From an uncultured Planctomycetaceae bacterium (GTDB taxonomy: Bacteria; Planctomycetota; Planctomycetia; Pirellulales; Thermoguttaceae), in the NCBI GenBank assembly GCA_963759115.1, contig CAVWXT010000002.1, positions 373,557 to 437,556 on the forward strand: a DNA stretch of 64,000 nt. Reading direction: 5' to 3'. This document shows, piece after piece, positions 1-63,067 of this stretch. The position numbers and the translations under genes are program-made. Each line of letters begins with the position of its first letter. The first letter of the stretch is position 1. The notes under the pieces are model-generated. The model was not told the DNA's origin. It was given only the letters and a program-made list of their open reading frames with translations, and did no database searches.

Positions 1-309
1 GACCAGATCTTCCTGGAGGCGTTTCCTCGCTTCCAGCGAGACGCCGCCAACTTCCATCACGCGCAGTTGATCATCAAAACGGAAGGGATGACGCCCTTCG
101 GTTTGATGCTGATGCAGCCCAACGGGAAGGACTACACGACGTACCAGTTCTACGACATCGTGGTGAACGATCCGTTGCGGCTGTTCAAGGGCGATCCGTT
201 CCGCCCGTTCACGCCCTTGGGCTGGCAGAAGGTGATCGACAACTCGGCGCTGGCGCCGCCCGTCACGCTGCAGCAGGCCCGCCGCCCGACCAACGGCGGT
301 CAGCGATGA
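1..309 (+). CDS. 3' fragment of a secreted hypothetical protein, truncated by the window start; paralog of the next gene
   Basis: The frame is open from nt 1. Its C-terminal 80 aa (LMLMQPNGKDYTTYQFYD...LGWQKVID...PVTLQQARRP) are closely similar to the C-terminus of the 395..1393 product. Confidence 0.5.
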   Translation, partial: DQIFLEAFPRFQRDAANFHHAQLIIKTEGMTPFGLMLMQPNGKDYTTYQFYDIVVNDPLRLFKGDPFRPFTPLGWQKVIDNSALAPPVTLQQARRPTNGGQR

Positions 310-1765: not shown

Positions 1766-4129
1766 ATGCAAGATCTCGAAGAAGCGGTTGTTCGTCTCGT
1801 CCACGCCCCCGGCTATCGGCCCGTCAAGCCGCGGCTGATCGCCCAACAGTTGAAGCTGTCGAAAGAAGAGACGGTCGAACTGAAACGGGCCGTTAAACGG
1901 CTCGTACACGCCGGGCGGCTCTGCTACGGCTCAAACCATCTGGTCATGCCCGTCACGGCCGCCAAGGGAAAAAGGGGACAGTCCCCGACCAACCTTCGGT
2001 CGGGCACAAAAGGGGACAGTCCCCTTTTTCCCAAGCCGCCGAAGAGCAACCGCCTGATGGGCGTGTTTCAGCGGGCGCAAAAGGGCTTCGGATTCGTCCG
2101 GCTCCGCGGCGAAGGCGTGGCTGCCGACGCCAAAGACATCTACATCCCCGCCGACCGCACCGGTGACGCTGCCACCGGCGACATGGTGTTGGTGGAGATG
2201 AAGAAACGCGGGCGCGGCGATCCCGGCCCGCGCGGCGAGATCGTCGAGGTGATCGAGCGGCAGACGCAGCAGTTCGTGGGCACGTATTTCGAGTCGGAAG
2301 GGGCGGCCTACGTGAAGATCGACGGCCCGCTGTTCGCCCGGCCGATCTACGTCGGCGATCCGGGGGCGAAGAACGCCCGGGCCGACGACAAAGTGGTGAT
2401 CGAGATGATCCGCTTCCCGTCGCCGCTGCACGACGGCGAGGGGGTGATCGCCGAGGTGCTCGGCCCGCGGGGCAAGCCGGGCGTCGACACGCTGTCGATC
2501 ATCCGCGAGTTCAACCTGCCCGACCGCTTCGCCGAAGACGCCCTGGCCGAGGCCCGCGGAGAAGCCGAGAAGTTCGACGAGTCGCTCGGCCCGCGGCAGG
2601 ACTTCACCGGTGAGACGATCGTCACCATCGATCCGGTCGACGCCCGCGACTTCGACGACGCGATCTCGCTGGAGCAGCTCGACAACGGCCACTGGCGGCT
2701 CGGGGTCCACATTGCCGACGTGTCGCATTTCATCCGCCCGAACACCGCACTAGACCGCGAGGCCCTGGAGCGGGCCACGAGCGTGTATCTGCCCGATCGC
2801 GTGCTGCCCATGCTGCCGGAGGTGATCTCCAACGGCCTGGCCAGCCTTCAGCCGGGCAAGGTCCGCTACACGAAGTCGGCCATCATGGAGTTCACCGCCG
2901 ACGGGCTGCGGGTGGCGACCGACCTCTACTCCGCGGCCATCCGCAGCAGCAAACGCCTCACCTACGAACAGGTCGACGGGTTTCTGCAAGACCGGGAGAC
3001 TTGGCGGCGCAAGCTCGGCATCAAGGTGGCCGACCTGTTGGGCCGCATGCACACCCTGGCCATGATCCTCCGCAAGCGGCGGCTGGCCAACGGGGCGCTG
3101 GAGTTGAGCATGCCCGAGGTCAAAGTGGAACTCGATAAGCAGGGGCGCGTGGCGGGGGCCCACGTCGTCGAGAACACCGAGAGCCACCAGATCATCGAGG
3201 AGTTCATGCTGGCCGCCAACGAGGCCGTGGCCGAAGCGCTTCGCGACCGCGGGCTGCACTTCCTCCGCCGCATCCACCAGGCGCCCAGCCCGCAAAAGCT
3301 CGCCGTGCTCACCGAGTTCATGACGGAGTTGGGCTACAAGACGGAGAGCCTGCAAAGCCGCTTCGCCCTGCAAAAGCTGTTGGACGCGGCCACCGGCCGG
3401 CCCGAACAACATGCCGTCCACTTCGCCGTGTTGCGGTCGCTGCAACGGGCGATCTACAGCCCGATGGAAGAAGGCCACTATGCCCTGGCCAGCGACTGCT
3501 ATTGCCATTTCACCTCGCCCATCCGCCGCTATCCCGACCTGACGGTACACCGGTTGGTCGACGCGATTCTGCGCAGAAAAGGGGACAGGCCCCATTTGCC
3601 GGAACGGCCCGAAGGGTGCTTCGCACAAATGGGGCCTGTCCCCTTTTCCGCAAAACTGCGGAACGACTACGAAGAGTTGGTCGTCCTCGGCCGGCACTGC
3701 TCCGACCGCGAGCAACGGGCCGAAGCGGCCGAACGCAACCTCACCAAGCTCAAGCTGCTGGCCTATCTGAGCGACCGCATCGGCGAGGAGATGGAGGCCG
3801 TGGTGACGGGCGTGGAGAGCTACGGCATCTTCGTCCAGGGGATCAAGCTGCCGGCCGAAGGACTCGTCCGCGTGGAGACCCTGCGCGACGATTTCTACCG
3901 TTTCGACCGCGCCTCGCACACGCTTTCCGGCCACCGCGCCGGCAACAGCTACCGGCTGGGCGACTTGCTGCGCGTCGCCGTGGCGCGGGTGGACCTCGAA
4001 CGCCGCGAGTTGGATTTCCGCGTGGTGGAACGGGAGAAGAGGAAAACGACTGTATCGACGAAGGTGGCGAAGAGCGGCGCCAAGGCGAAGAAGGAAGGAG
4101 GCCACAAACGGCCGAAACGCCGATCATGA
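1766..4129 (+). CDS. rnr: ribonuclease R (RNB-family 3'-5' exoribonuclease)
   Basis: Intact 788-aa ORF with an N-terminal HTH region (MQDLEEAVVRLVHAPGYRPVKP), cold-shock domain (KGFGFV), RNB catalytic core (IDPVDARDFDDAISLE) and a C-terminal S1/basic tail. Two in-frame palindromic-element insertions are noted separately. Confidence 0.92.
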   Translation: MQDLEEAVVRLVHAPGYRPVKPRLIAQQLKLSKEETVELKRAVKRLVHAGRLCYGSNHLVMPVTAAKGKRGQSPTNLRSGTKGDSPLFPKPPKSNRLMGVFQRAQKGFGFVRLRGEGVAADAKDIYIPADRTGDAATGDMVLVEMKKRGRGDPGPRGEIVEVIERQTQQFVGTYFESEGAAYVKIDGPLFARPIYVGDPGAKNARADDKVVIEMIRFPSPLHDGEGVIAEVLGPRGKPGVDTLSIIREFNLPDRFAEDALAEARGEAEKFDESLGPRQDFTGETIVTIDPVDARDFDDAISLEQLDNGHWRLGVHIADVSHFIRPNTALDREALERATSVYLPDRVLPMLPEVISNGLASLQPGKVRYTKSAIMEFTADGLRVATDLYSAAIRSSKRLTYEQVDGFLQDRETWRRKLGIKVADLLGRMHTLAMILRKRRLANGALELSMPEVKVELDKQGRVAGAHVVENTESHQIIEEFMLAANEAVAEALRDRGLHFLRRIHQAPSPQKLAVLTEFMTELGYKTESLQSRFALQKLLDAATGRPEQHAVHFAVLRSLQRAIYSPMEEGHYALASDCYCHFTSPIRRYPDLTVHRLVDAILRRKGDRPHLPERPEGCFAQMGPVPFSAKLRNDYEELVVLGRHCSDREQRAEAAERNLTKLKLLAYLSDRIGEEMEAVVTGVESYGIFVQGIKLPAEGLVRVETLRDDFYRFDRASHTLSGHRAGNSYRLGDLLRVAVARVDLERRELDFRVVEREKRKTTVSTKVAKSGAKAKKEGGHKRPKRRS
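1966..2032. repeat. GGGGACAG-family palindromic element (copy 1), in frame inside rnr
   Basis: aaaaaGGGGACaGTCCCC-gaccaaccttcggtc-gggcacAAAAGGGGACaGTCCCCTTTTt; each GGGGAC-a-GTCCCC unit is a perfect palindrome. It encodes the extra peptide KGKRGQSPTNLRSGTKGDSPLFPK between the HTH and cold-shock domains. Confidence 0.65.
3583..3657. repeat. GGGGACAG-family palindromic element (copy 2), in frame inside rnr
   Basis: The 22-bp inverted arms AAAAGGGGACAGGCCCCATTTG / CAAATGGGGCCTGTCCCCTTTT flank a 27-bp core. It encodes RRKGDRPHLPERPEGCFAQMGPVPFSAK in a surface loop after the RNB domain. Confidence 0.65.
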
Positions 4130-4226
4130 GATTTTCGACGGCGGTCTTGCTTGTCCTGGCGGCCAGAAGCTGCCGACTTCCAAAACTCTCTTGACTTTAT
4201 GTCGCATGAACACTATAAGTAGCACG

Positions 4227-5079
4227 ATGCTGCACGACGCTCTGCTTTCGGACAAGATCTGCGATCTCTTGGGCAAACCCTATAGCGCCGGCGAAGGGTA
4301 CGCTATTTATTGTGCTGATTGTCTGCGAGTCCTGCAAAACATGCCCGGCGACATCTTCTCCCTCACGGTTACTAGCCCACCATACAACATTGGAAAAGAA
4401 TACGAGAACCCGCTGCCTCTTGAAAAGTACCTGAGTTGGTGCGAGCAATGGATGCAAGAGGTCTATCGCGTCACGCGACCAGATGGAGCGTTCTGGCTCA
4501 ACGTCGGATACGTTGAAATTTCGGGGAGGGCGAAAGCGATTCCGCTGCCGTATCTGCTGTGGGATAGATCGCCGTTCTATCTGATTCAGGAAGTGGTGTG
4601 GAACTATGGTGCAGGAGTGGCTGCCAGCAAGTCTTTATCGCCCCGGAATGAGAAGCTCCTCTGGTACGTGAAGGACCCAGGGAACTACACATTCAATCTC
4701 GACCTCATTCGGGACCCGGAGGTGAAGTATCCTCTCCAAAAAAAGAACGGCAAACTGAGGTGCAACACAATCGGGAAGAACCCATCGGATGTATGGCAGG
4801 TGGCAAAGGTGACTTCGGGAGAAGACCGCGCCTCACCGGAGAGGACACCCCACCCTGCACAGTTTCCTCTTGATCTTGTGAATCGTGTGGTGCTCGGATT
4901 CTCAAATCCGGGCGAGTTGGTGCTGGACCCCTTTATGGGTTCCGGCACCGTAGCTGTGTCTTGCCTTCAATCCGGGCGGAGGTTTCTCTGGAATCGAGAT
5001 CAAACCCGCCTATTGTGAAATCGCGGCGAAACGAGTTGAGAGGTTTCTGGCAGACAAACGATCACGGCTCTTCGATTAA
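4227..5079 (+). CDS. DNA methyltransferase (beta-class N4-cytosine / N6-adenine family), M subunit of a type II R-M system; 1-bp frameshift near 4990
   Basis: Motif IV SPPY (VTSPPYNIGKEY) precedes motif I (LVLDPFMGSGTVAVSCLQSGRRF), which is the beta-class order. After GRRF the frame breaks; the -1 frame reads the expected GIEIKPAYCEIAAKRVERFLADKRSRLFD*. TTGACT-N17-TATAAG lies immediately upstream, with ATG 4227 at about +7, so the mRNA is probably leaderless. Confidence 0.75.
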
Positions 5080-5850
5080 CGAGGCGGTATTTCCGTGCAT
5101 TCGTCCAAGAACTTCTGATTGTTCGGCTTGATCCTGCGCAAGCGCCGGGAAGTTCTCCCTCAAAGCGAAGGAGGTCCCCAATTGTGTTAATGCCAAGCTG
5201 AGCGAGACGTTCCGACGTAAACGGCCCAACTCCATCCAACAGCAAAACAGGCGCATGTTGTCGATATGGGCCGGGGATCGGAATGAGCTTGTTATCGTAA
5301 ACCGCTTGTTTCAACCCGGCCATCTGGCCGGTGGGCGCTTCTTGAGGATCCCAGTCGGAAGCGTCAATCCAGCCGAATCGGATCAGGGTCATGGTTTGAC
5401 TGAAGAAATTGACCGTGATGTAGAACCCCGATTTCTCCTTCTTGGGGACAACATCGCTTCCTGACTTCTGGCCGTAGCTCCGATTGCCATATACCTTGAA
5501 GCCTGCTTGGCCAGACGTTTTGATTTCGATTGAGAACGTGGATCGGGTACGTAGACAATATCCTTATCCTCTTTCGATTGGTTCCCGCGCCACTGCGTGG
5601 GTGCGCGTTGCTCCAGTTCGCGGGCCAGCAAGACCTCGAAGAAGTAACCGACAATTGTCGCAGGAACCTTGAGGTCCGAGAGTTTCACGGAGATCGAGCC
5701 CGTTCCTACAGTGGATTGCCAGAGCGTAGCCCACGCCGTGGTCGATGCGTCCAGCAACTCGGTTGACTTGAGCGGGTGACTGTTGACAAGCTGCCGGGTA
5801 ATGCTGAGCCAAGACGATTCTGGCTTTCCCGAATAGGGGCTGGTTGTCAT
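5062..5850 (-). CDS. putative type II restriction endonuclease (PD-(D/E)xK candidate), frameshifted; boundaries approximate
   Basis: It lies immediately downstream of and in the same orientation as the C-protein gene, convergent with and overlapping the MTase 3' end. Joining the 5389..5850 and 5000..5392 frames gives ...KDIVYVPDPRS/TFSIEIKTSGQAGFKVYGN..., a VPD-x7-E-x-K motif. No other similarity is recognisable, as is typical for REases. Confidence 0.4.
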
Positions 5851-6071
5851 CTTCCCTCCGGCCCGCCGAACAGATCGCGTGGATGAACGCCGAGGGCTTC
5901 GGCGAGACGGATGATATTTTTGAGGGCAATGTTTCGTTCACCGCGTTCCACGCCACCCATGTACGTGCGGTGTATTCCAGCTTTGGCGGCGAGAGCTTCC
6001 TGGCTCAATCCTGTTTTTTCTCGCAAGGCGTGTACGCGATCACCGAATCGTTTCAATTGGGCGTCTTTCAT
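5847..6071 (-). CDS. controller (C) protein, XRE-family HTH transcriptional regulator of an R-M system
   Basis: 74 aa: MKDAQLKRFGDRVHALREKTGLSQEALAAKAGIHRTYMGGVERGERNIALKNIIRLAEALGV, a classic C-protein HTH. Its stop abuts the start of the REase candidate. Confidence 0.7.
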   Translation of the reverse strand: MKDAQLKRFGDRVHALREKTGLSQEALAAKAGIHRTYMGGVERGERNIALKNIIRLAEALGVHPRDLFGGPEGR

Positions 6072-6227
6072 CGAAGTGCAGTTTGAGTAATTGAACACAA
6101 TGAGTCTACACCCTATGAGTAGCACACGCGTCGGACGTTCGGATGTTCCTCGCCTTGGTCGTTGCCTTGCCCGCGAGCAGAGCGTCTGCTACTATCAGTG
6201 TGGAAGCGGATTGATGGGAGCTGACCG

Positions 6228-6461
6228 ATGAGCTTCGTGATTCAAGCCATCTATGAGAATGGCGTTCTAAGGCCATTGGAAAAGCTGGCCTTACGCGAAC
6301 GCCAGCATGTCCGACTTGAGGTCGAGACGAACGTCGCGTCAAGCGGCGACGGCCCGGCGCAGGATCGTGCCGATCTCCTTGAAGGTGTTCAGGCAGCGAC
6401 GGGCATCCTCGATCTGGCAGAACACTTCGACGACTACCGGTTCGGCCGCCGCAAGCGATGA
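6228..6461 (+). CDS. DUF104-family antitoxin (VapB-like partner of a PIN toxin)
   Basis: MSFVIQAIYENGVLRPLEKLALRERQHVRLEV matches the DUF104 signature (IxAIYENGVLKPLE). Its stop overlaps the next ATG in an ATGA junction. Confidence 0.6.
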   Translation: MSFVIQAIYENGVLRPLEKLALRERQHVRLEVETNVASSGDGPAQDRADLLEGVQAATGILDLAEHFDDYRFGRRKR

Positions 6462-6571
6462 AGCCCGTACCCTCTGATTCCAACAGTTCGTCTCCGTACC
6501 CTCCGCGCCACCGCAGTGCGATTCCCGTGTGTCTGTTCCCCCCCACTAGCCCCCTTTCCGCTGCCTGCTAA
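6458..6571 (+). pseudogene. possible remnant of a vapC (PIN) toxin gene
   Basis: A 37-aa ORF (MKPVPSDSNSS...) starts with ATGA overlap on the antitoxin stop, at the position where a PIN toxin N-terminus (MK..LDTNV) would be expected. It runs into a C-rich non-coding stretch. Confidence 0.2.
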
Positions 6572-8295: not shown

Positions 8296-8309
8296 AGGAA
8301 TGATGATGT

Positions 8310-8385
8310 ATGAATGATGAATGATGAATGGCGATTTCCCGGCAAGACATTCATCATTCAGCATTCATCATTCATCATTTCCCGG
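8310..8385 (+). promoter_or_regulatory. long AT-rich inverted repeat / stem-loop between gcvH and gcvPA
   Basis: ATGAATGATGAATGATGAATG pairs with CATTCATCATTCATCAT; the loop contains TTTCCCGG and the arm is followed by a second TTTCCCGG. GGAG lies 5 nt upstream of the gcvPA ATG. Confidence 0.4.
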
Positions 8386-11240: not shown

Positions 11241-12400
11241 CAGTGCGACCGGCTTGACGGTCATCCCCGGCCGCAGGTTCTGGATGCCGGACGTGACAAC
11301 CCAATCATCGGCGGTCAACCCGTCCGTCACGATATGCAGTCTGTCGTCCTGTAGCGGTCCCACCTGCACTTCGTGGTACTCGACGATGTTCTTGTCACTT
11401 ACGACGTACACGAACCTCTGTCGTTGGTCGCGTCCGATCGCTCTCTCTGGCACCAGCAGCGCCTTGTGGGGCGCGCTGGTCACGAGCCGCACGCGGGCGA
11501 ACAGGCCGGGCATGAGAACGCCATCGGGGTTCGGCAGCAACGCCCGCCAATGGGCCGAGCCGGTGTTCGGATCAATTTGATTCGCCGTTGACTCCAACTT
11601 GCCGTGGCGCGGAAAGCCCTTCTCGTCGCCCACCCCGCATTGGACCGATAGTTTCGACTCCGGGCCAGCCTTGTTATCGCCCGCGCGACGGAGTTTCAGA
11701 ATGGTGCGCTCATCGACGGCAAAGGTGACGCACATCGGATCGACCAAGACGATCGTGGCCAATAGCGTCTTCTCCGCCGTCACGAGGTTGCCTGCGTCGA
11801 CCTGGGAGCGGCTGATCCGACCGCCGATCGGCGCAGACACTTTGGTGAAGTCCAAGTTCAGTGCGGCGAGGCTCAACGCGGCCTTCGCCGCTCGCACGGC
11901 CTCCGCGGCCTCTTGCGCTGACTGGCGATCCGATCGACTTCCGGCTGTGCGACGGTGCCGGGCGTTTTCTCGTTCGCCTGCTTTGCCCGCTTCAGGTCGG
12001 CGTCGGCCCGATCCAATCGGAGTTGCGCAACCCGCTCCTCTCCCGTACGTTGGTCGACTTCAAGCAGATACTGTCGCGGGTCGATCTCGAACAACAGTTC
12101 GCCCGGCTTGACCGTCGTCCCGTCCTTGAAGAGGGTCTTGATGAGATGGCCGGTAGCGCGGCGCGGACCTCGACGACTCGGGCCGCTTCGATCCGGCCCG
12201 CGAAATCCTCGTGATCGGTGACTTCGCGGAGCACCGGCCGCGCGACGGTAACCGTGGGCGGCGTTTCGGTGGTTTTGGCCGGCGCGGATTGGCGCGAGGG
12301 GTCTCACTCATTTTCATTTTGGTTACCGGGGGCGGCTCGGTGGACTTCGATTGGCCGGGCAACTTAATGTCGATTCGACCGTCGTCGCCGACGGTCGCAC
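11240..12400 (-). CDS. HlyD/MFP-family efflux periplasmic adaptor, copy 1; several frameshifts near the N-terminus; start uncertain
   Basis: Across three frames it reads PVLREVTDHEDFAGRIEAARVVEVRA, then LFKDGTTVKPGELLFEIDPRQYLLEVDQ...AQLRLDRADADLKRAK, then LNLDFTKVSAPIGGRISRSQVDAGNLV...VKPVALEPE. Confidence 0.5.
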
Positions 12401-12546
12401 TGCTACCGTCGGGGATTTCGACGCTGGATTTCTGCCCGTCTCTCGTGATGGTGATTATGATCCCCAGAGCGAAGCCAAAACCGCCGACGAACAGCAGCAG
12501 CACGATGAGTGTTACAATACGAACGCCAACCGTGCAACGCCGCGAG

Positions 12547-12650
12547 CGGCTGCGGTGAACTTTTGCCCTCACCCCGACCCTCTCCCGGCGGGAGAGGGGA
12601 CCGAGGCGCGCCGCCCTCACCCTGGCCCTCTCCCGGCGGGAGAGGGGACG
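12547..12650. repeat. two tandem copies of the CCCTCACC...CCCTCTCCCGGCGGGAGAGGG palindromic repeat (family E)
   Basis: The same element occurs in the opposite orientation at 19513..19560. Here it lies in the junction or C-terminal tail region of the kinase gene. Confidence 0.55.
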
Positions 12651-12659
12651 ATTCTCTTG

Positions 12660-14033
12660 TTTCGACCGCTTGTCGCAACAGCGCCGGCAAATCCGCGCCG
12701 GCGCAGAACGGAGCCAATGCCTCGGCCACTTCGGCCGGCGTGGCGTATCGCGATTCGGCGCGGGTCTTTGGCCAACATGCGATCCAGCACGGCCGCCAAG
12801 CCCGTCGGGAATCTCCGGGCAAAACTGGCGGATCGGCGGGATCGGCTCCTGGCGATGGGCCAGCATCTTGTCGAACGTGCCCTGGTACTCCGGCCCGCTG
12901 AACGGGGCCCGGCCGGAAAGCAGCTTGTAGAGCGTGGCCCCGAGGCTGTAGATGTCGGCGCGGATATCGACCGCCCGGCTGTCGGAGGCCTGCTCGGGGG
13001 CCATGTAGTCGGCCGTGCCCATCGCCTGGCCCGTGCCGGTCATATCGTCTTCGGGCGGCTCAAAGGCTGAAGGGGACAGTCCCATTTTTGCGGCGGCTCG
13101 GATCCGTTGGAGAAGCAACGTTGCTGGGCCGGCAAATTGGGACAGTCCCCCGTTGCGAATCGGGCCAGCCCCAGGTCGAGCAGCTTCACTTGGCCCTCGG
13201 GCGTGAGCATCAGGTTCGAGGCTTGAGTCGCGGTGGACCAGGCCGTGTTCGTGGGCGGCCTGCAGGCCCAGGGCCGCTTGCCGGGCCAGCTCGCAGGCGT
13301 CGGCCACGGGGATCGGGCCGGAAAGGGGACAGCCTTGTGCGCAGCACCCTCGGGTCGTTCCGGCAAATGGCGCTGTCCCCTTTTCCGGCCCAGCCGGCGG
13401 ACGATTTCCGCCAGGTCGAGCCCCTCGACGAACTCCATGACCAGCACCAGCCGGCCTTCGATTTCGCGGGCGTCGTAGGCGCGGACGATGTGGGGATGAT
13501 CGAGCCGGCCGATGGCCTTCATCTCCCGCTCGAAGCGGACGACCGCCCGCGGGTCGTCGGTCCGGCCGCGCGGCAGGACCTTCAGGGCGACGACCCGATC
13601 GAGCCGGTTGTGCAGGGCCTTGTAGACCGTGCCCATGCCGCCGCTGCCCAGCCGCTCGATCAAGCTGGTACTCGCCGAGTTGCTGGGGCAACGAGGGCTC
13701 GGAAGTGCCCGGCAACGTTTCGTCGCGGGGGGCGGCAGTGCCGCCGCCACTCCAACGCTGCGAATCGGCGGCCGCCTCGACTCCACCCAACGCCGCCTTC
13801 GCCCGGGCAACGGCCTGGCCGCACTCGGGCTCATCCAGAACGGGTCCGGCGCGATCGGCGCCGCGAAGCCGGGCGACCAGCGTGTCGTCGGCGTCGGCCA
13901 GCGTGGCCAACTCGGCCTGGCAATCCGGGCAGGATTCCAGGTGGCCGGCCAAGGAGTCGGAGGCGTCGTCGGGCAGCTTGCCGACGAGATAATCCATCAG
14001 TTGCTCGCGGCTCGGGCAGGTTGCGGTTGGCAT
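12660..14033 (-). CDS. Ser/Thr protein kinase with N-terminal anti-sigma-like zinc-finger domain; at least 5 frame changes plus repeat insertions; possibly a pseudogene
   Basis: The N-terminus MPTATCPSREQLMDYLVGKLPDDASDSLAGHLESCPDCQAEL is anti-sigma-factor-like. The kinase motifs LGSGGMGTVYKA, HEHGLVHRD, NLMLTPEGQVKLLDLGLARF, GTADYMAPEQ and LDRMLAKDP are spread over three frames. GGGGACAG elements sit at 13068..13153 and 13313..13372. Confidence 0.55.
13068..13153. repeat. GGGGACAG-family palindromic element inside the kinase gene
   Basis: GAAGGGGACAGTCCCATTTTTGC ... GCAAATTGGGACAGTCCCCC; the reading frame changes across it. Confidence 0.55.
13313..13372. repeat. GGGGACAG-family palindromic element inside the kinase gene
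   Basis: CCGGAAAGGGGACAGCC ... GGCGCTGTCCCCTTTTCCGG. On the coding strand it translates to GRKRGQRHLPERPEGAAHKAVPFPA, the same peptide family as rnr copy 2. Confidence 0.55.
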
Positions 14034-14241
14034 GGCGCAGTTCCTTGGGAAGAGCGGTATCTGTAGGACAGGTTGCTAACCTGTCGGGACAGGGCTTTGG
14101 GCTTTGGTCTTGGGGCTTCGGTCTTTGGGCTTAGACCCAAGGTCCAAGGCCGAAGTCCGAAGGCCCAAGCTCGAAGACCCCTCTATAAGGACTAACGGAG
14201 TCATTTGACACCATTTTCCCACCACCCCTTCACGGAACCAA

Positions 14242-23314: not shown

Positions 23315-24800
23315 TGAAGCGGAGTCGGGCTCTGCGGGGACGCAACCCGACAAGGAATAGCCAGGTTAGGGCGGGTGAATGACCCGTGATGCCCTGGCGG
23401 TATCCACTGCCAGGGCAGTTTTGTCTCACCGACTCATTCATTTGCTCTACTATGCCTCCGAAAATCCGACCCTGCCAAACACCAGCACACCCGCCGCAAT
23501 TGGCAACGGCTTGTCACTCGTCGTCGCGCACCTAGTAGTCACCCATTCGTGCCGTCCGAGCCGAAGCCCGTCGCATATTGTATTGTTCACCGGTCACAGT
23601 GCCCAATCAGGAGGACAGTGCAGACTTGCGTCTCACGAGAACCCCTTTGCGGGCCAGCCGCGACCGTACTCGTGCGCGATATCGTGTTGCTCTCTACGCC
23701 GCCTGGTGGGCGTGCTCACGCTGCCAACGACGCAGCCGCTTCCAACATATCTCCGCCAGTTTGCGGGCCACCGCCACCCGTGCAATCTTTGCGCCGGATC
23801 GCTTCCGCACCCGCGTGTAAAAGTTCTTCAAGGCCGCGTCCTCGCGGATCGCCTTGATGGCCGCCTCCACGAGAATCCATCGCAACCACGTCGACCCTTG
23901 CCGTGTAATCGAACCGCGGTAGCAGTGTCCGCCCGACTGATGCACACGGCAGGTCAGCCCGGCGTACGCGCCGACCTGTTTTGCCATGCGGAAACGCTCC
24001 ACTTCGCCGATTTCCGCCACGATCAACAACGCCGAGTACAGGCCGATGCCGTGAATCTCGGTCAAGGCTTCCGCTTGCGGAAAAGCCGCCGACATCCGCG
24101 CGATGTGCCGGTCGATGATCGTCGCTTGCCGTCCGAAATGTTTCAATCGCGCCAGTAGTTCGTCGCGGACCAGATTCTCGATCCAGCCGAAGTCTTGCCC
24201 ACGAAACCAAGCTAAGCCGCGGACGCCGAAAGGAACCCGATAAGGGGCTTGCCGATTTTGCCTGGCCAACAAGGCCCGCAAGTGGATTTTCGCCTCGGCC
24301 AACTCGCGGCCCAGACGTGCCCGGCGGCGTGTCAGCTCGCGGAGTTGCTGGTACGGCTCCGGCGGAATGTAGGCCAGCGGAATCTGGTTGATCCGCAACA
24401 GGTTCGCCAACAATTGGGCGTCCAGCTTGTCCGTTTTGGTGCGTTGTTGTACCATAGCCCGCAGACGAAACGGATGGGCCAATAAGATCGTACCGTACGG
24501 TCGGAGCAGGTCGTACAGCCAGCGATACGTTGCGCTGGCCTCGATGACCGCCCGAAAGGATCCCAACGCCTGGACGACGTTCACGATGCTGGCGGTGTCT
24601 TCACAGCGAACGGTGACGGGCTTGATAACTTCGCCCGTGTCGTTCACGGCGGCAATCACCACGGTCTCACGGTGCAAATCGATACCCACGTGCCACATGA
24701 ATAGGTCTCCTTGTTTGGTGGAGGAAAGATGGATTCGTTACTGCTTCCATCCTACTCCACCAGCAAGGGGCCTATCACGCGGCGGTTATAGTATCAGGAG
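23315..24800 (-). mobile_element. IS110-family insertion sequence, copy 2 (divergent transposase, identical 52-bp end block)
   Basis: TATAAT then 9 nt then the conserved 52-bp block at 23321..23372; a longer 3' non-coding region with the cctccgaaaatccg motif shared with copy 1; hairpins upstream of the transposase ATG. Confidence 0.7.
23694..24698 (-). CDS. IS110-family transposase
   Basis: 334 aa: MWHVGIDLHRETVVIAAVNDTGEVI...KTDKLDAQLLANLL...IHGIGLYSALLIVAEIGEVERF... Confidence 0.85.
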   Translation of the reverse strand: MWHVGIDLHRETVVIAAVNDTGEVIKPVTVRCEDTASIVNVVQALGSFRAVIEASATYRWLYDLLRPYGTILLAHPFRLRAMVQQRTKTDKLDAQLLANLLRINQIPLAYIPPEPYQQLRELTRRRARLGRELAEAKIHLRALLARQNRQAPYRVPFGVRGLAWFRGQDFGWIENLVRDELLARLKHFGRQATIIDRHIARMSAAFPQAEALTEIHGIGLYSALLIVAEIGEVERFRMAKQVGAYAGLTCRVHQSGGHCYRGSITRQGSTWLRWILVEAAIKAIREDAALKNFYTRVRKRSGAKIARVAVARKLAEICWKRLRRWQREHAHQAA

Positions 24801-24975: not shown

Positions 24976-24985
24976 CACAGCCACA

Positions 24986-25048
24986 GAAAAGGGGACATCA
25001 CTGATTACGGGACGTGATGTTCAGACATATCAGTGATGTCCCCTTTTG
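24986..25048. repeat. GGGGACA-family palindromic element (intergenic copy)
   Basis: AAAAGGGGACATCACTGAT ... ATCAGTGATGTCCCCTTTT. Confidence 0.6.
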
Positions 25049-25182
25049 TCTCGCCCGACGGGGGGACCGAACTGTTTCCAATTCTTGGGAGAACGCCATT
25101 GCCGCTACAGAGGAGTCGCGGCCCTGTGCTGGCGTGCGCGTCCTTACTGGACTGCCCGCACGGAGTATAATCGTATACAGGA

Positions 25183-25486
25183 GTGAGAGCCGTGCGATTC
25201 CAGGTGACCCTGACGCCCAGCGCGGATGAAGACCTCAAACATTACCGTGCATTCGAGCAACGAGCCATTGTCGACGCGATGAAGATTCACTTGAGGGCCG
25301 ATGCGAACGTCGAGACCAAGCGCCGAAAGAGATTGGCCGGACATCCGGTTGCACCCCTGGGAACTGCGAGTCGGCAACTATCGCGTCTTCTACGAATTGG
25401 AAGCGGAAACTCGCGTCAAGGTCGTTGCCGTTGGACACAAAGAACACAACGACCTGTTCATACGGGGAAAGATGGTGAATTTATGA
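25183..25486 (+). CDS. ParE/RelE-family toxin, frameshifted at about 25350
   Basis: MRAVRFQVTLTPSADEDLKHYRAFEQRAIVDAMKIHL.. in one frame, then WELRVGNYRVFYELEAETRVKVVAVGHKEHNDLF in the next. Confidence 0.5.
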
Positions 25487-25737
25487 CCAAAGTGGACGTG
25501 CGTCAAAGACCCGTCAGCGTCGATGAACTGCTGCAATTGGCCAGCGATGACGCAGTGCTCGTCGTCAGCCGCGACGGCCACGAGTTCGTCGTCGAGGCCG
25601 CGGATGCCTTCGACCGCGAGGTCGCTCGACTGGCCGAGAGCAGGAACTTCATGTCGTTCCTGGCCGAACGTTCCCGAGAATCCGGCAGCGTGCCGCTCGA
25701 AGAGATTGAACAACGCTTTGGCGCCGAGCCGCAATGA
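25483..25737 (+). CDS. Phd/YefM-like antitoxin located downstream of the toxin
   Basis: MTKVDVRQRPVSVDELLQLASDDAVLVVSRDGHEFVVEAADAFDREVARLAESRNFMSFL; ATGA overlap with the toxin stop. Confidence 0.5.
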   Translation: MTKVDVRQRPVSVDELLQLASDDAVLVVSRDGHEFVVEAADAFDREVARLAESRNFMSFLAERSRESGSVPLEEIEQRFGAEPQ

Positions 25738-26578: not shown

Positions 26579-26754
26579 AAGCGGAGGTGCAGCCCGACGA
26601 CATTCCGCCGCGGCGGTGTGGCAATGACGAAGCGAACTGAAACGGCGTGCCGCTGGCTTTGCCAATGCTGTGGGCGTTTCACGGTCCCATCGAGGCTTGA
26701 GCAAGGATGGGAAACCGGCAGGGCAGACAGGAGGCAGAGCGACCGGCAGGGAGG

Positions 26755-26960
26755 AAGAAGTACGGAGTACGGAGTACGGAGTGCCAGGCAAGCAGCGCAG
26801 AGAGGGCAAGTGGTCGCTTCCTACTCCGTACTCCGTACTGGGTACTCGGTACCTGAGTGTTTCTCCCCCTTGTCAAAACGGCCCTCACTTGCTAGCCTGA
26901 CCCTGCACTTTACTTCACCTTGTATCCGCAGCACTCCGTACTTGGTACTCCGTACTCTTT
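26755..26960. repeat. inverted arrays of heptamer AGTACGG / CCGTACT tandem repeats upstream of the four-helix-bundle gene
   Basis: gaAGTACGGAGTACGGAGTACGGAGTgcc (26755-26790), then CTCCGTACTCCGTACTGGGTACTCGGTAC (26815-26850), then CACTCCGTACTTGGTACTCCGTACTC (26930-26960). Confidence 0.6.
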
Positions 26961-33327: not shown

Positions 33328-33451
33328 GTAGAACGGAATTCATTCCGTTCCAGCGGATTGATACTACCAGCGTTCGAGCCCAACACTAACCCGAAGCGCA
33401 AACGAGGGATCGTAACGCACTGCCTCGCTTGCGCTTCGGGTTAGTGTGGGC
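33328..33451. repeat. family-B palindrome (GTAGAACGGAATTCATTCCGTTC) plus a 28-bp-stem hairpin (CCCAACACTAACCCGAAGCGCAAACGAGG / CCTCGCTTGCGCTTCGGGTTAGTGTGGG)
   Basis: Family B also occurs at 14917..14941 and 30865..30887. Confidence 0.55.
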
Positions 33452-45546: not shown

Positions 45547-45655
45547 TGTTGGGTGGCACGGGCAGCTTGGCTGCCCGTGTCGGGTGGTGCAGGCACTTTG
45601 TCCCTCCTCTCGCCTCACGGGCAGACAAGCTGCCCGTGCCACCCAACCCAACAAT
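45547..45655. repeat. family-I nested palindrome (TTGGGTGG-CACGGGCAGC..GCTGCCCGTG ... CACGGGCAG..CTGCCCGTG-CCACCCAA)
   Basis: 22-bp perfect inverted arms, each arm itself a hairpin. Confidence 0.55.
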
Positions 45656-46767: not shown

Positions 46768-46896
46768 ACGACGCACCGCTTTCAAGAAGTGTGCCACTGC
46801 TCCGCAGGAGCAGTGCCCGGCGGGATCTGGCCCTGGGTCTTGGGTCTTGGTGCGAAGGCCAAAGACCCAAGACCCAAGGCCGAAGAGCTAAAATCC

Positions 46897-51511: not shown

Positions 51512-51596
51512 AGGCGCTCCCGTCCCGTGCGGTGTATCATATCCGTCAAGCAAAGCGGCGGCAGTCCCCTTTTCCCGGTTATCCCGGTTTGCTAGG

Positions 51597-51684
51597 CTGT
51601 AGACGCGGCATCTTGCCGCGTCATGCCTATTTTAGGAACAACGAACCGTTTCGAGATAATGCGGCAAGATGCCGCGTCTACTTA
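51597..51684. repeat. family-C MITE-like element (copy 2)
   Basis: GTAGACGCGGCATCTTGCCGCG ... GCGGCAAGATGCCGCGTCTAC. Confidence 0.55.
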
Positions 51685-62112: not shown

Positions 62113-62215
62113 TGTGACGCCTCCGTTTCGCGTGGTTCGCCCGTATCTTGGGCGATCCGACTGCGAATGTCAACATGCGGGGTTCTCGCCGCAGGGCCAA
62201 TGAGTTCTTCGATGT

Positions 62216-62278
62216 GGGAGGCGACTCCAGTCGCCGATTGTCCGAAATCAGCCGCAAATCGGCGACTGGAGCCGCCTC
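62216..62278. repeat. family-G palindromic repeat, copy 2 (GGAGGCGACTCCAGTCGCCGA ... CGGCGACTGGAGCCGCCTCC)
   Basis: The hairpin ends 3 nt before the group II intron 5' end. Confidence 0.6.
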
Positions 62279-62281
62279 CTA

Positions 62282-63067
62282 GTGCGCTTGTGAGTGTATC
62301 GAATCAGCAAGGTGCAAGTCCTTGTCGAAATTGGGTTTGAACTTCGTAACCGAAAGTAACTGCGTCCTCGTGAGAGGGGGTGGAGAGCAACTGAAGGTGA
62401 ACGGCTGGTCCGCAGGATGACGAACTCGATTCGGCCGGTTGTCGTGGCGAGCCTGCTAGGAAAAGGCGAAGCCCAAGTGACGCTGTGGTCCTCGCAAGGG
62501 ATGCGGTCGGCAGACCGCGCGGTAAGCTCCGGGGGGAAACCAAACCAAGCCCCAGAGGCGGCAACAGGTGGTTGGAGGCGGAACGGTCGGAAGGTTTGAT
62601 ACATGAAGCAAGGAGACCTGGGCGGGTACAAGGACGAAGTTCATTGTCCCTGATAAGGATACGAAGAATCGACCGCCCAGGAGTCAGAGCGTCCATACGA
62701 GCGAGGAAGCGGGGCAATGCCCGTCGAGCAAAGGGACGCAGGAAAGTGGATGAAACATGACGCACGGCCAAAACCACACCGTACCGCGAGTGTCGGCAAC
62801 GACTAGCCACGACGGACTGCGTCAGGCACACGTAACTTGGCTCAGATTGGCCGCACCGTCGATGTTGCATGTTGGTGGCCTTCCCGTGAAGGTCAGGGCC
62901 TTTCGCTTCTGCCGATCCCGAGAAGGAACCTTGTTTCCTTCCCGCGCTCGGTTCACCAATCCTCTACGAGGTAACACCACTAACCGGAGAGCCGGATGCG
63001 GGAAATCCGCCAGTCCGGTTCGGAGGGAGGGGAGGCCGGGAACTTAACCGGCCTTCCCTACCCTTAT
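62282..63067 (+). ncRNA. ORF-less group II intron (about 786 nt)
   Basis: 5' GUGCG; canonical domain V GAGCCGGAUGCGGGAAAUCCGCCAGUCCGGUUC at 62969..63001 (AGC triad, 9-bp lower helix, CA bulge, GAAA loop); domain VI with a bulged A at 63060, 7 nt before the ..UUAU 3' end. No RT-like ORF; the only ORFs inside are short and Arg-rich. Confidence 0.7.

Follow-up and report, generated by a model that had tools for sequence, protein, structure and literature searches.

A stretch of 64,000 nucleotides from an uncultured Planctomycetaceae bacterium (Thermoguttaceae; contig CAVWXT010000002.1, positions 373,557 to 437,556; hereafter the window) contains five copies of a palindromic element with the termini AAAAGGGGACAG...CTGTCCCCTTTT, two of them within rnr (encoding RNase R), two within a Ser/Thr kinase gene, and one intergenic. 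The element is very probably a non-autonomous mobile DNA palindrome of approx. 65–85 bp that is widespread in Planctomycetota and, on the evidence of open reading frames (ORFs), many of its copies are predicted to be read through as 23–29 extra residues in otherwise conserved genes.

The five-copy family that had been proposed in the initial annotation of this DNA was borne out by a shuffle test, by inverted repeats, by a covariance model and by folding. The core AAAAGGGGACAG (at most one mismatch) has 10 matches in the window, compared with 0.21 expected from shuffles, and none of 100 shuffles reached 10. Inverted repeats delimit copy A (1966–1986/2012–2032; 21 nt, 95%), copy B (3573–3598/3626–3651; 26 nt, 96%), copy C (13310–13333/13372–13395) and copy E (24980–25005/25029–25054; 26 nt, 88%). 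A covariance model was built from 26 copies of other genomes and then run on the window; it returned B (3571–3653) with 98.5 bits on the minus strand, C (13315–13391) with 54.4 bits on the plus strand, A (1964–2034) with 36.3 bits, E (24981–25053) with 27 bits, and D (13072–13150) with only 12.8 bits. All five copies fold far beyond shuffled sequence (z -4.6 to -8.6), with -59 kcal/mol for the RNA fold of copy B (z = -8.6) and z values of -4.6 to -6.6 for the other four. The coordinates given initially were off by a few bases for B and C, and the remaining copies lie as described; the GGGGACAG box then taken as the unit is present, but in the main subfamily the unit comprises a conserved 29-nt core with variable self-complementary arms. 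The copies and their host genes are as follows:

1766–4129, plus strand: rnr (RNase R), an intact 787-codon ORF, host of copies A and B.
1966–2032, no strand assigned: copy A, with two GGGGACAGTCCCC mini-palindromes either side of a CCGACC...GGTCGG hairpin.
3573–3651, minus strand: copy B, main subfamily, with 26-nt arms around the conserved core (minus-strand reading TGCGAAGCACCCTTCGGGCCGTTCCGG).
12060–14033, minus strand: Ser/Thr protein kinase pseudogene, a 657-codon ORF that is a mosaic of frames, host of copies C and D.
13068–13153, no strand assigned: copy D, degenerate, with similar arms (GGGGACTGTCCCAATTTGC / GCAAAAATGGGACTGTCCCC) and a different core; fold z = -4.6.
13315–13391, plus strand: copy C, main subfamily, decayed through small deletions; its orientation relative to the coding strand is that of B.
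24981–25053, no strand assigned: copy E, intergenic, with the termini AAAAGGGGACA...TGTCCCCTTTT as in the family and an unrelated interior; fold z = -5.4.
51558–51578, no strand assigned: solo terminus remnant GGCAGTCCCCTTTTCCCGG without a partner arm.

The RNase R of the window is an exact match to protein P0001, carries the Pfam domains OB_RNB, CSD2, RNB and S1, and has its best PDB match in the RNase R of B. subtilis (8CDU, E = 1e-133); its translation gives 787 aa, not the 788 aa reported initially. Insert A adds a net 69 nt (1967–2035, codons 68–90, peptide GKRGQSPTNLRSGTKGDSPLFPK), with a possible 4-bp duplication CAAG at its borders, and insert B adds a net 72 nt (3578–3649, codons 605–628, peptide KGDRPHLPERPEGCFAQMGPVPFS), for which no target duplication that fits this net length is definable. 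Both are, as had been noted, multiples of three (23 and 24 residues) that leave the ORF intact.

For comparison, 120 RNase R homologues were aligned, and orthologue DNA was taken from the loci L002 and L123. Both segments are absent from the closest orthologues (P0002–P0004, 81–84% identical), both insertions are missing from the DNA of L002 and L123, and blastn alignment of rnr with these two loci breaks off where B is inserted. Site B follows the RYPDLTVHR motif; the short form ...AILTKxKPRNDY... was found there in 116 of the 120 homologues, and extra sequence in four only, i.e. the window protein, P0005, P0006 and P0114. Site A is a hypervariable linker from the N-terminal domain to the first cold-shock domain, and its length differs among all homologues. 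The alignments mark both rnr segments as lineage-specific insertions, in agreement with the initial annotation, which had proposed such a check against orthologues. That the segments represent ancestral protein, chance low-complexity sequence or assembly artefacts could be argued from the variable length of the site A linker; this explanation was tested and rejected by the orthologue and family data, and its probability is practically negligible, for the nearest relatives lack both segments, the length of site B is constant in 116/120 homologues, the 26-nt palindrome is 97% shared with copies in unrelated genes and genomes, and the family is present in many independent assemblies and in one isolate genome.

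An AlphaFold2 model of RNase R (111 homologues in the input; mean predicted local distance difference test, pLDDT, 79.5) has residues 65–92 and 607–628 as coil with pLDDT < 50 between ordered elements, and a third short internal stretch (581–586) is likewise below 50. The segment 607–628 is located between helices 593–605 and 635–669, and B. subtilis RNase R (8CDU) has another sequence of another length at site B. Because of this low-confidence coil, and because 8CDU differs in both respects at site B, the two inserts are predicted to occupy permissive positions of RNase R, that is, a linker (A) and a variable RNB-domain loop between two helices (B); the earlier proposal of domain boundaries or loops is thus reflected in the model, where both inserts fall into disordered, low-confidence segments. 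In a terminator scan of rnr, the mini-hairpin of copy A was flagged and nothing else.

The same RNase R loop carries an element in other genomes. In L001 (encoding P0006), the same element is inserted in rnr three codons downstream of site B and in opposite orientation; it comprises 77 bp (TGGAAAAGGGGTCAGGCCCCATTTG-core-CAAATGGGGCCTGACCCCTTTTCCA) with a perfect 10-bp direct repeat, CGAAGCCGCG, at the flanks, so that the insertion amounts to 77 + 10 = 87 nt (29 codons) and a KPR...KPR duplication is visible in P0006. Over 71 positions, copy B agrees with the L001 copy at 69, and the two differences form a compensatory A/T pair; as the rnr genes of the window and L001 share only ~80% nucleotide identity, the element is better conserved than its host genes. 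A third element, of a different subfamily, is found at the same loop in L124 (P0114), and by these comparisons the site B loop has been entered at least three times independently.

The kinase gene of the window was compared with its orthologue in L080, which is a 1634-codon open frame with 82–83% identity in the nucleotide alignment; tblastn with this intact orthologue gave the frame order 2, 3, 2, 3, 2 across the window kinase. Copy C represents a net insertion of 71 nt, including a GGCC duplication, and shifts the frame: its peptide in the upstream kinase frame is RKRGQRHLPERPEGAAHKAVPFPA, and the downstream kinase sequence resumes in another frame. Its orientation relative to the coding strand and its related peptide had been described correctly. 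Copy D is located in the kinase activation loop, directly after DLGLARF, in frame with the downstream sequence; compared with L080, its left border carries 2 additional nt. The window kinase also has 1-nt indels away from the copies, e.g. at GEYQL/IERLG and two within HRD-LKPSN. The initial suggestion that the copies pseudogenise the kinase therefore holds for the frame shift of copy C (71 nt), but several 1-nt indels are unrelated to the copies and the gene in L080 is intact; the window kinase is thus best read as a pseudogene for several reasons, of which the copies are not the sole one. Sequencing error is an alternative source of the kinase indels; however, rnr and other large ORFs nearby are intact.

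The L080 kinase has its own copy, 75 nt and in frame, five codons downstream of the site of copy C, and at the position of copy D it has the left terminus GGGGGACTGTC, read in frame; a further element remnant is found near its N-terminus. Since the copies of this open frame are in frame and almost at the positions of those in the window, insertion at these kinase loops is tolerated in itself, though copy C shifts the frame, and the insertion of copy D is probably ancestral to the window genome and L080. Beside the copy-D remnant in L080, after DLGLARF, an unrelated perfect 14-bp hairpin (GTTGGGATGGCAGT-TCA-ACTGCCATCCCAAC) is also read in frame; palindromic insertions seem to accumulate in the kinase activation loop. 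A second palindromic family, CCCTCTCCCGGCGGGAGAGGG, was observed as a tandem pair (12578–12646) in the C-terminal part of the window kinase pseudogene, and as one copy at the same place of the L080 kinase, with the in-frame peptide SPLPPGEGQGEG.

The arm variants of GGGGACAG are free of stop codons in six of six frames. Among 79 well-flanked metagenome copies (at least 450 nt on each side), 30 are located in a spanning ORF (at least 100 codons on both sides), and strong Pfam domains were detected in ten of ten spanning ORFs tested, mostly on both sides of the insert; these hosts are a pyruvate kinase, two Ser/Thr kinases, an SNF2 helicase, AccA, an aminotransferase/CobQ fusion, DnaE, an FAD-linked oxidase, ManC, and a WD40 protein. 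Copies from the genome scan (below) are in frame in four further ORFs of Planctomycetota with Pfam domains, namely MnmA, hydantoinase A/B, a LamG/FG-GAP protein, and an Orn/DAP decarboxylase. A hidden Markov model (HMM) search with the peptide of one frame, KGDSPHL[PERPEGCFAQ/CEAPSGPFRQ]MGTVPF, yielded 620 cluster representatives at E <= 1e-3, 141 of them at E <= 1e-10; the contexts comprise kinase activation loops, a response-regulator receiver domain, an NadC-like enzyme and BlaR1-type peptidases, together with many short or N-terminally extended ORFs, which are apparently annotation artefacts. A word-indexed protein search with a concatenated peptide query recovered 18 short ORFs only. The intragenic copies occur in either orientation and in each of the six frames.

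In the main subfamily, an outer box, (G/A)(G/A)AAAAGGGG-N-CAG, is conserved, and so is a 29-nt centre, GTGCGAAGCACCC-NNN-GGGCCGTTCCGGC, common to 26 aligned copies. This centre consists of three mini-hairpins of 3–4 bp with three-base loops (GTGC-GAA-GCAC, CCC-NNN-GGG and CCG-TTC-CGG). The arms differ in sequence from copy to copy, and their complementarity is almost always Watson–Crick; stems of 19–40 bp are found in most of 112 core-anchored copies, with very diverse arm sequences. When a structure with a 28-bp main stem and the three mini-hairpins was tested on the 26-copy alignment, 95.7% of the cells were paired, compared with about 40–53% in slid controls; 16 of the 28 main-stem pairs are changed on both sides, and the observed covariation score was reached by none of 500 shuffles. 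Even the outermost three to four positions, beyond the AAAA run, are variable yet paired. Because G-U pairs are very rare, the pairing being symmetric Watson–Crick, and both strands are equally perfect, the complementarity of the arms appears to be a DNA-level and not an RNA-level property. The central three-base loop is found in both orientations (TTC 46 / GAA 28, TCC 41 / GGA 8, TGC 9 / GCA 6).

A genome scan with the pattern AAAAGGGGNCAG-N30-60-CTGNCCCCTTTT matched at least 120 loci, and 39 of the 120 loci listed are from Planctomycetota, with Pirellulaceae, Thermoguttaceae, Planctomycetaceae, Phycisphaerae, Ca. Kuenenia and the isolate Rhodopirellula sp. SM50 as carriers. A core-only scan matched at least 120 metagenome loci, as well as seven contigs of viral collections; four IMG/VR contigs (L128–L131) have identical copies, with identical flanks too. 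As the initial annotation had anticipated, the family is dispersed and not confined to the window loci, judging from the listed genome loci, the metagenome contigs and the 620 protein-cluster representatives; there is strong evidence for a family that spans the phylum and is frequently in frame in conserved genes. An Rfam scan of the whole window (permissive for copy B) assigned no family and gave only sub-threshold matches to generic hairpins (miRNA precursor). A 22-nt arm, AAAAGGGGACAGGCTACTTTTT, was observed with differing interiors in metagenome-assembled genomes (MAGs) assigned to Nitrospirota, Clostridia, Myxococcota, Pseudomonadota and Phycisphaerae (the loci include L005, L027, L052, L064, L084, L088, L098 and L111); this recurrence across phyla may reflect a true superfamily, convergence on terminator-like hairpins, or mis-binning. 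A DinG-like helicase gene of Pseudomonas (L096) has an in-frame copy of a related element.

Several points weigh against a mobile palindrome that is read through in its hosts. No transposase or autonomous partner was found in ~1.7 Mb of the loci examined, and no longer element with the same ends (unpaired or distant termini) in ~1 Mb of loci. Target duplications are inconsistent, with 10 bp in L001, 4–5 bp at A, C and L124, and none in L080. A search anchored on the termini of 123 copies gave no consistent signal, and for 108 core-anchored copies no duplication length or offset was consistently enriched over shuffled flanks, the best being 4-bp repeats in 7. Mobility is deduced from comparisons of distant genomes and not from presence or absence in close strains, the copy count covers 64 kb of the source genome, and read-through of the inserts is deduced from open frames. 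Terminal-box matches in other phyla include ordinary terminators (e.g. L057), and an mRNA hairpin of 23–28 bp could affect expression and thus have a possible function. Candidates for a partner were discarded: a long-range terminus pair in a Salipaludibacillus locus, considered as an autonomous element, merely flanks an SDR gene and resembles ordinary terminators, and an IS200-like gene beside rnr in L002 and a Y1 gene in L089, considered as REP-associated tyrosine transposase (RAYT) partners, are flanked by unrelated hairpins or repeats. The latter gene (L089, 4770–5480; Pirellulales MAG; IS200-like/RAYT-like) has flanking inverted repeats of ~110 nt containing CTCTAGCCC...GGGCTAGAG palindromes, and with its repeats it represents a separate repeat/transposase system of the same order.

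A classical MITE (a miniature transposable element with inverted repeats), derived by deletion from an insertion sequence whose DDE transposase recognises the terminal inverted repeats and moves it with a fixed-length duplication, would account for a short, dispersed element with terminal inverted repeats and no coding capacity or transposase gene of its own, and also for the clean 10-bp duplication in L001 and the possible 4–5 bp duplications at A, C and L124. We consider it unlikely, however, since no consistent length or position of a duplication emerged from either set of copies (123 and 108), ~1 Mb of loci showed no longer element that has these ends, and the interior is conserved while most of each arm is variable, which is the reverse of a typical MITE; the outermost 3–4 positions, too, are variable yet complementary. 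Doubtful, though conceivable, is a doublet of repetitive extragenic palindromic (REP) sequences, a REPIN, that a single-copy RAYT (Y1/HUH) transposase would maintain and mobilise. The hairpin architecture with sub-palindromic arms (GGGGAC-A-GTCCCC), the high copy number and the absence of a general target duplication would suit such a doublet, as would the in-frame intragenic copies, which have been reported for REPs of Opitutus terrae and others (PMC3733652), and Y1 transposase genes do exist in related genomes. However, window copies A–C have no GTAG or CGTC tag (E has an internal GACG only), no tag is evident in the consensus of the 26-copy alignment, the two Y1 genes seen (L002, L089) have unrelated hairpins or repeats as neighbours, and REP stems, with 6–13 bp (PMC3733652), are much shorter and less perfect than the arms.

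A functional RNA signal under selection (for instance a terminator that acts in both directions, a hairpin that stabilises mRNA, or a site for RNase III), with mobility as a secondary matter, is decidedly improbable. It would be consistent with a very stable hairpin that has an A-run and a U-run at its flanks and a strongly conserved core, with several copies just upstream of start codons (L022, L051), and with the many N-terminal extensions among the HMM matches; however, the very rare G-U pairs and the equal perfection of both strands indicate a DNA-level constraint, both orientations and all six frames are used inside genes, and there is no Rfam family. Copy E, between a minus-strand ORF (23694–24698) and a plus-strand ORF (25183–25737) that are apparently divergent, is not in a terminator position, and terminators within dnaE, accA or pyk would be deleterious. 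Further classes were considered and rejected: an integron attC site, for the R''/R' boxes (RYYYAAC...GTTRRRY) are absent, the ends read AAAAGGGG/CCCCTTTT, and copies are found within genes; a Tn3-derived miniature element, for only GGGG appears to be common to the element and the Tn3 repeat sequences, and the flanks are inverted and not 5-bp direct repeats; and an intein or intron, for which no supporting feature was found.

For the preferred reading, a mobile DNA palindrome, the following course of events can be proposed. Insertions would land more or less anywhere; those that disrupt the frame or the fold would be purged, or left to mark pseudogenes (copy C), and those with a net length that is a multiple of three, in permissive surface loops, would persist and be translated. 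Mobilisation would occur in trans by some enzyme, and a mechanism that recognises a single-strand hairpin (HUH/Y1-like) would fit better than a DDE transposase, because there is no fixed-length target duplication and the core forms stable DNA mini-hairpins; the mini-hairpin d(GCGAAGC) is of high stability. The arms would be kept perfect by a DNA-level process, either by intrastrand template switching (quasipalindrome correction) or because a perfect hairpin is required for mobility, and RNA-level selection is unlikely as the keeper of perfect arms. In L080, the 6 nt to the left of the copy (GGCGTC) are the exact reverse complement of the 6 nt to its right (GACGCC), whereas the window orthologue has GTGGCC at the left, which suggests that host sequence can be drawn into the palindrome by templated copying. 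From these flanks, the perfect arms, the flip/flop loop and the GAA/TTC tri-loop mini-hairpins, we infer recognition of the element in the form of a DNA hairpin, and homogenisation of its arms by intrastrand templating. A speculative, on balance improbable, extension is that the family represents an unrecognised type of prokaryotic hairpin transposon, with a conserved cloverleaf-like centre of three very stable DNA mini-hairpins (GCGAAGC among them) recognised by a single-strand-specific, HUH-like enzyme, with arms re-made by hairpin-templated synthesis in each round, and, being stop-free in all frames, with the role of a phylum-wide generator of disordered loops in essential proteins; this would explain why target duplications are missing, why the loop occurs as flip and flop, and how the palindrome comes to reach into the flanks.

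The inverted terminal repeat hairpins of parvoviruses, e.g. adeno-associated virus (AAV), offer a structural analogy only, in that small palindromes with three-base loops are enclosed by a long stem, and an internal arm occurs as flip and flop; unlike the present element, they are replication origins at genome ends and not dispersed insertions, and there is no evidence of a relationship. The AAV repeats are processed by an HUH endonuclease, and the likeness may serve as a lead for the mechanism, not for classification.

In-frame palindromic insertion is already known. The Rickettsia palindromic elements (RPEs) are short dispersed palindromes, often in frame in conserved genes, that add 20–50 residues at permissive positions (PMC3733652); intragenic REPs with GTAG/CGTC tags occur in Opitutus terrae (a PVC relative), Xanthomonas, Stenotrophomonas and others, including insertions at the same site of recB in different Xanthomonas species (PMC3733652); and intragenic MITEs are known from enterobacteria (PMC2759123). 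The element behaves as the RPE class does, being dispersed, in frame in conserved ORFs, absent from orthologues and at permissive positions. Like RPE-1 to RPE-8, it is inserted as a palindrome with the ORF kept (here in rnr, dnaE, pyk, accA, mnmA and kinases), but it is found in another phylum, in free-living hosts with large, GC-rich genomes, and has a conserved core with variable, perfectly complementary arms; RPE-4 and RPE-6 have a terminal CGTC tag (PMC3733652), and there is no CGTC or GACG in window copies A–C, the two groups being set apart by tag and architecture and not by sequence comparison. With REP/REPIN it shares hairpin repeats, often as inverted doublets, no obvious duplication, intragenic in-frame copies of 20–30 residues, and independent insertions of several species at about the same site of one gene (for Xanthomonas, recB; in the present family, rnr and the kinase); it differs by stems of 19–40 bp instead of 6–13 bp, by the conserved three-hairpin centre, by copies A–C without GTAG/CGTC, and in that no associated RAYT was found in the loci examined. 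Bacterial MITEs (Correia/NEMIS, ERIC/RU-1..3, Nezha, RUP) are likewise non-coding, of 70–300 bp, with terminal inverted repeats and many copies, some of them inside genes with open frames (PMC2759123, PMC2229807), but MITEs have fixed duplications and ends conserved with a parent insertion sequence, neither of which was found in the copies and loci examined. The Planctomycetota family thus shares the behaviour of these elements and lacks both the REP tag and the fixed duplication of MITEs. The full-text literature on the element sequence, its peptides, and MITEs or palindromic repeats of Planctomycetes gave no prior description, with a coverage that is incomplete and does not guarantee priority. 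Of the initial view that this is RPE-like behaviour unreported in Planctomycetes, the behaviour stands and no earlier report was found, but the concept is not confined to Rickettsia.

The window contains further features. Directly upstream of rnr (1460–1730) lies a large composite palindrome of a different repeat family, GGCAAGATTTCTTGGC...GCCAAGAAATCTTGCC, with inner inverted repeats at 1530–1547/1642–1659 and at 1571–1617; the rnr upstream spacer could not be aligned with the sequences of relatives. Two adjacent ORFs upstream of rnr (1–300 and 1150–1390) have near-identical ends (…MQPNGKDYT.YQFYD…GWQKVID…QQARRP) and are therefore regarded as tandem paralogues. Downstream of rnr, a DNA methyltransferase-like ORF (4191–5018; SPPYNIGKEYE motif) was observed; since the relative L002 has a DUF3806 gene between rnr and gcvT, this region (4191–5018 and roughly 5000–6500) looks like a small inserted island. 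Near the end of the window, 62987–63067 matches Rfam RF00029, the catalytic domain of group II introns (56.5 bits, gathering score 40). Other long hairpin repeats, unrelated in sequence, are unusually frequent in the window and mostly intergenic by appearance; one of these has 32-nt arms with nested CACGGGCAGC...GCTGCCCGTG palindromes. The unrelated hairpin repeats are located at:

8298–8379
14040–14180
26752–26852
33382–33448
45548–45647
46825–46885
51598–51682
62213–62283

For genome annotation, the element implies that gene callers may extend ORFs through it, because it is open in all frames, which would result in spurious N-terminal extensions and short 'hypothetical proteins', and it may inflate the apparent divergence between orthologues. 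The mobilising enzyme could reveal a different mechanism of mobilisation, since the conserved core, the variable but perfect arms, the lack of a fixed duplication and the flip/flop loop fit neither MITE nor REP. If the reading as a mobile palindrome is true, the Planctomycetota would represent a much larger natural experiment than Rickettsia on selfish DNA that makes protein segments, with independent in-frame insertions that number in the hundreds, use either orientation and all six frames, and affect enzymes that are conserved and probably essential, and with loops of RNase R and of Ser/Thr kinases (the activation loop included) that would have been hit repeatedly.

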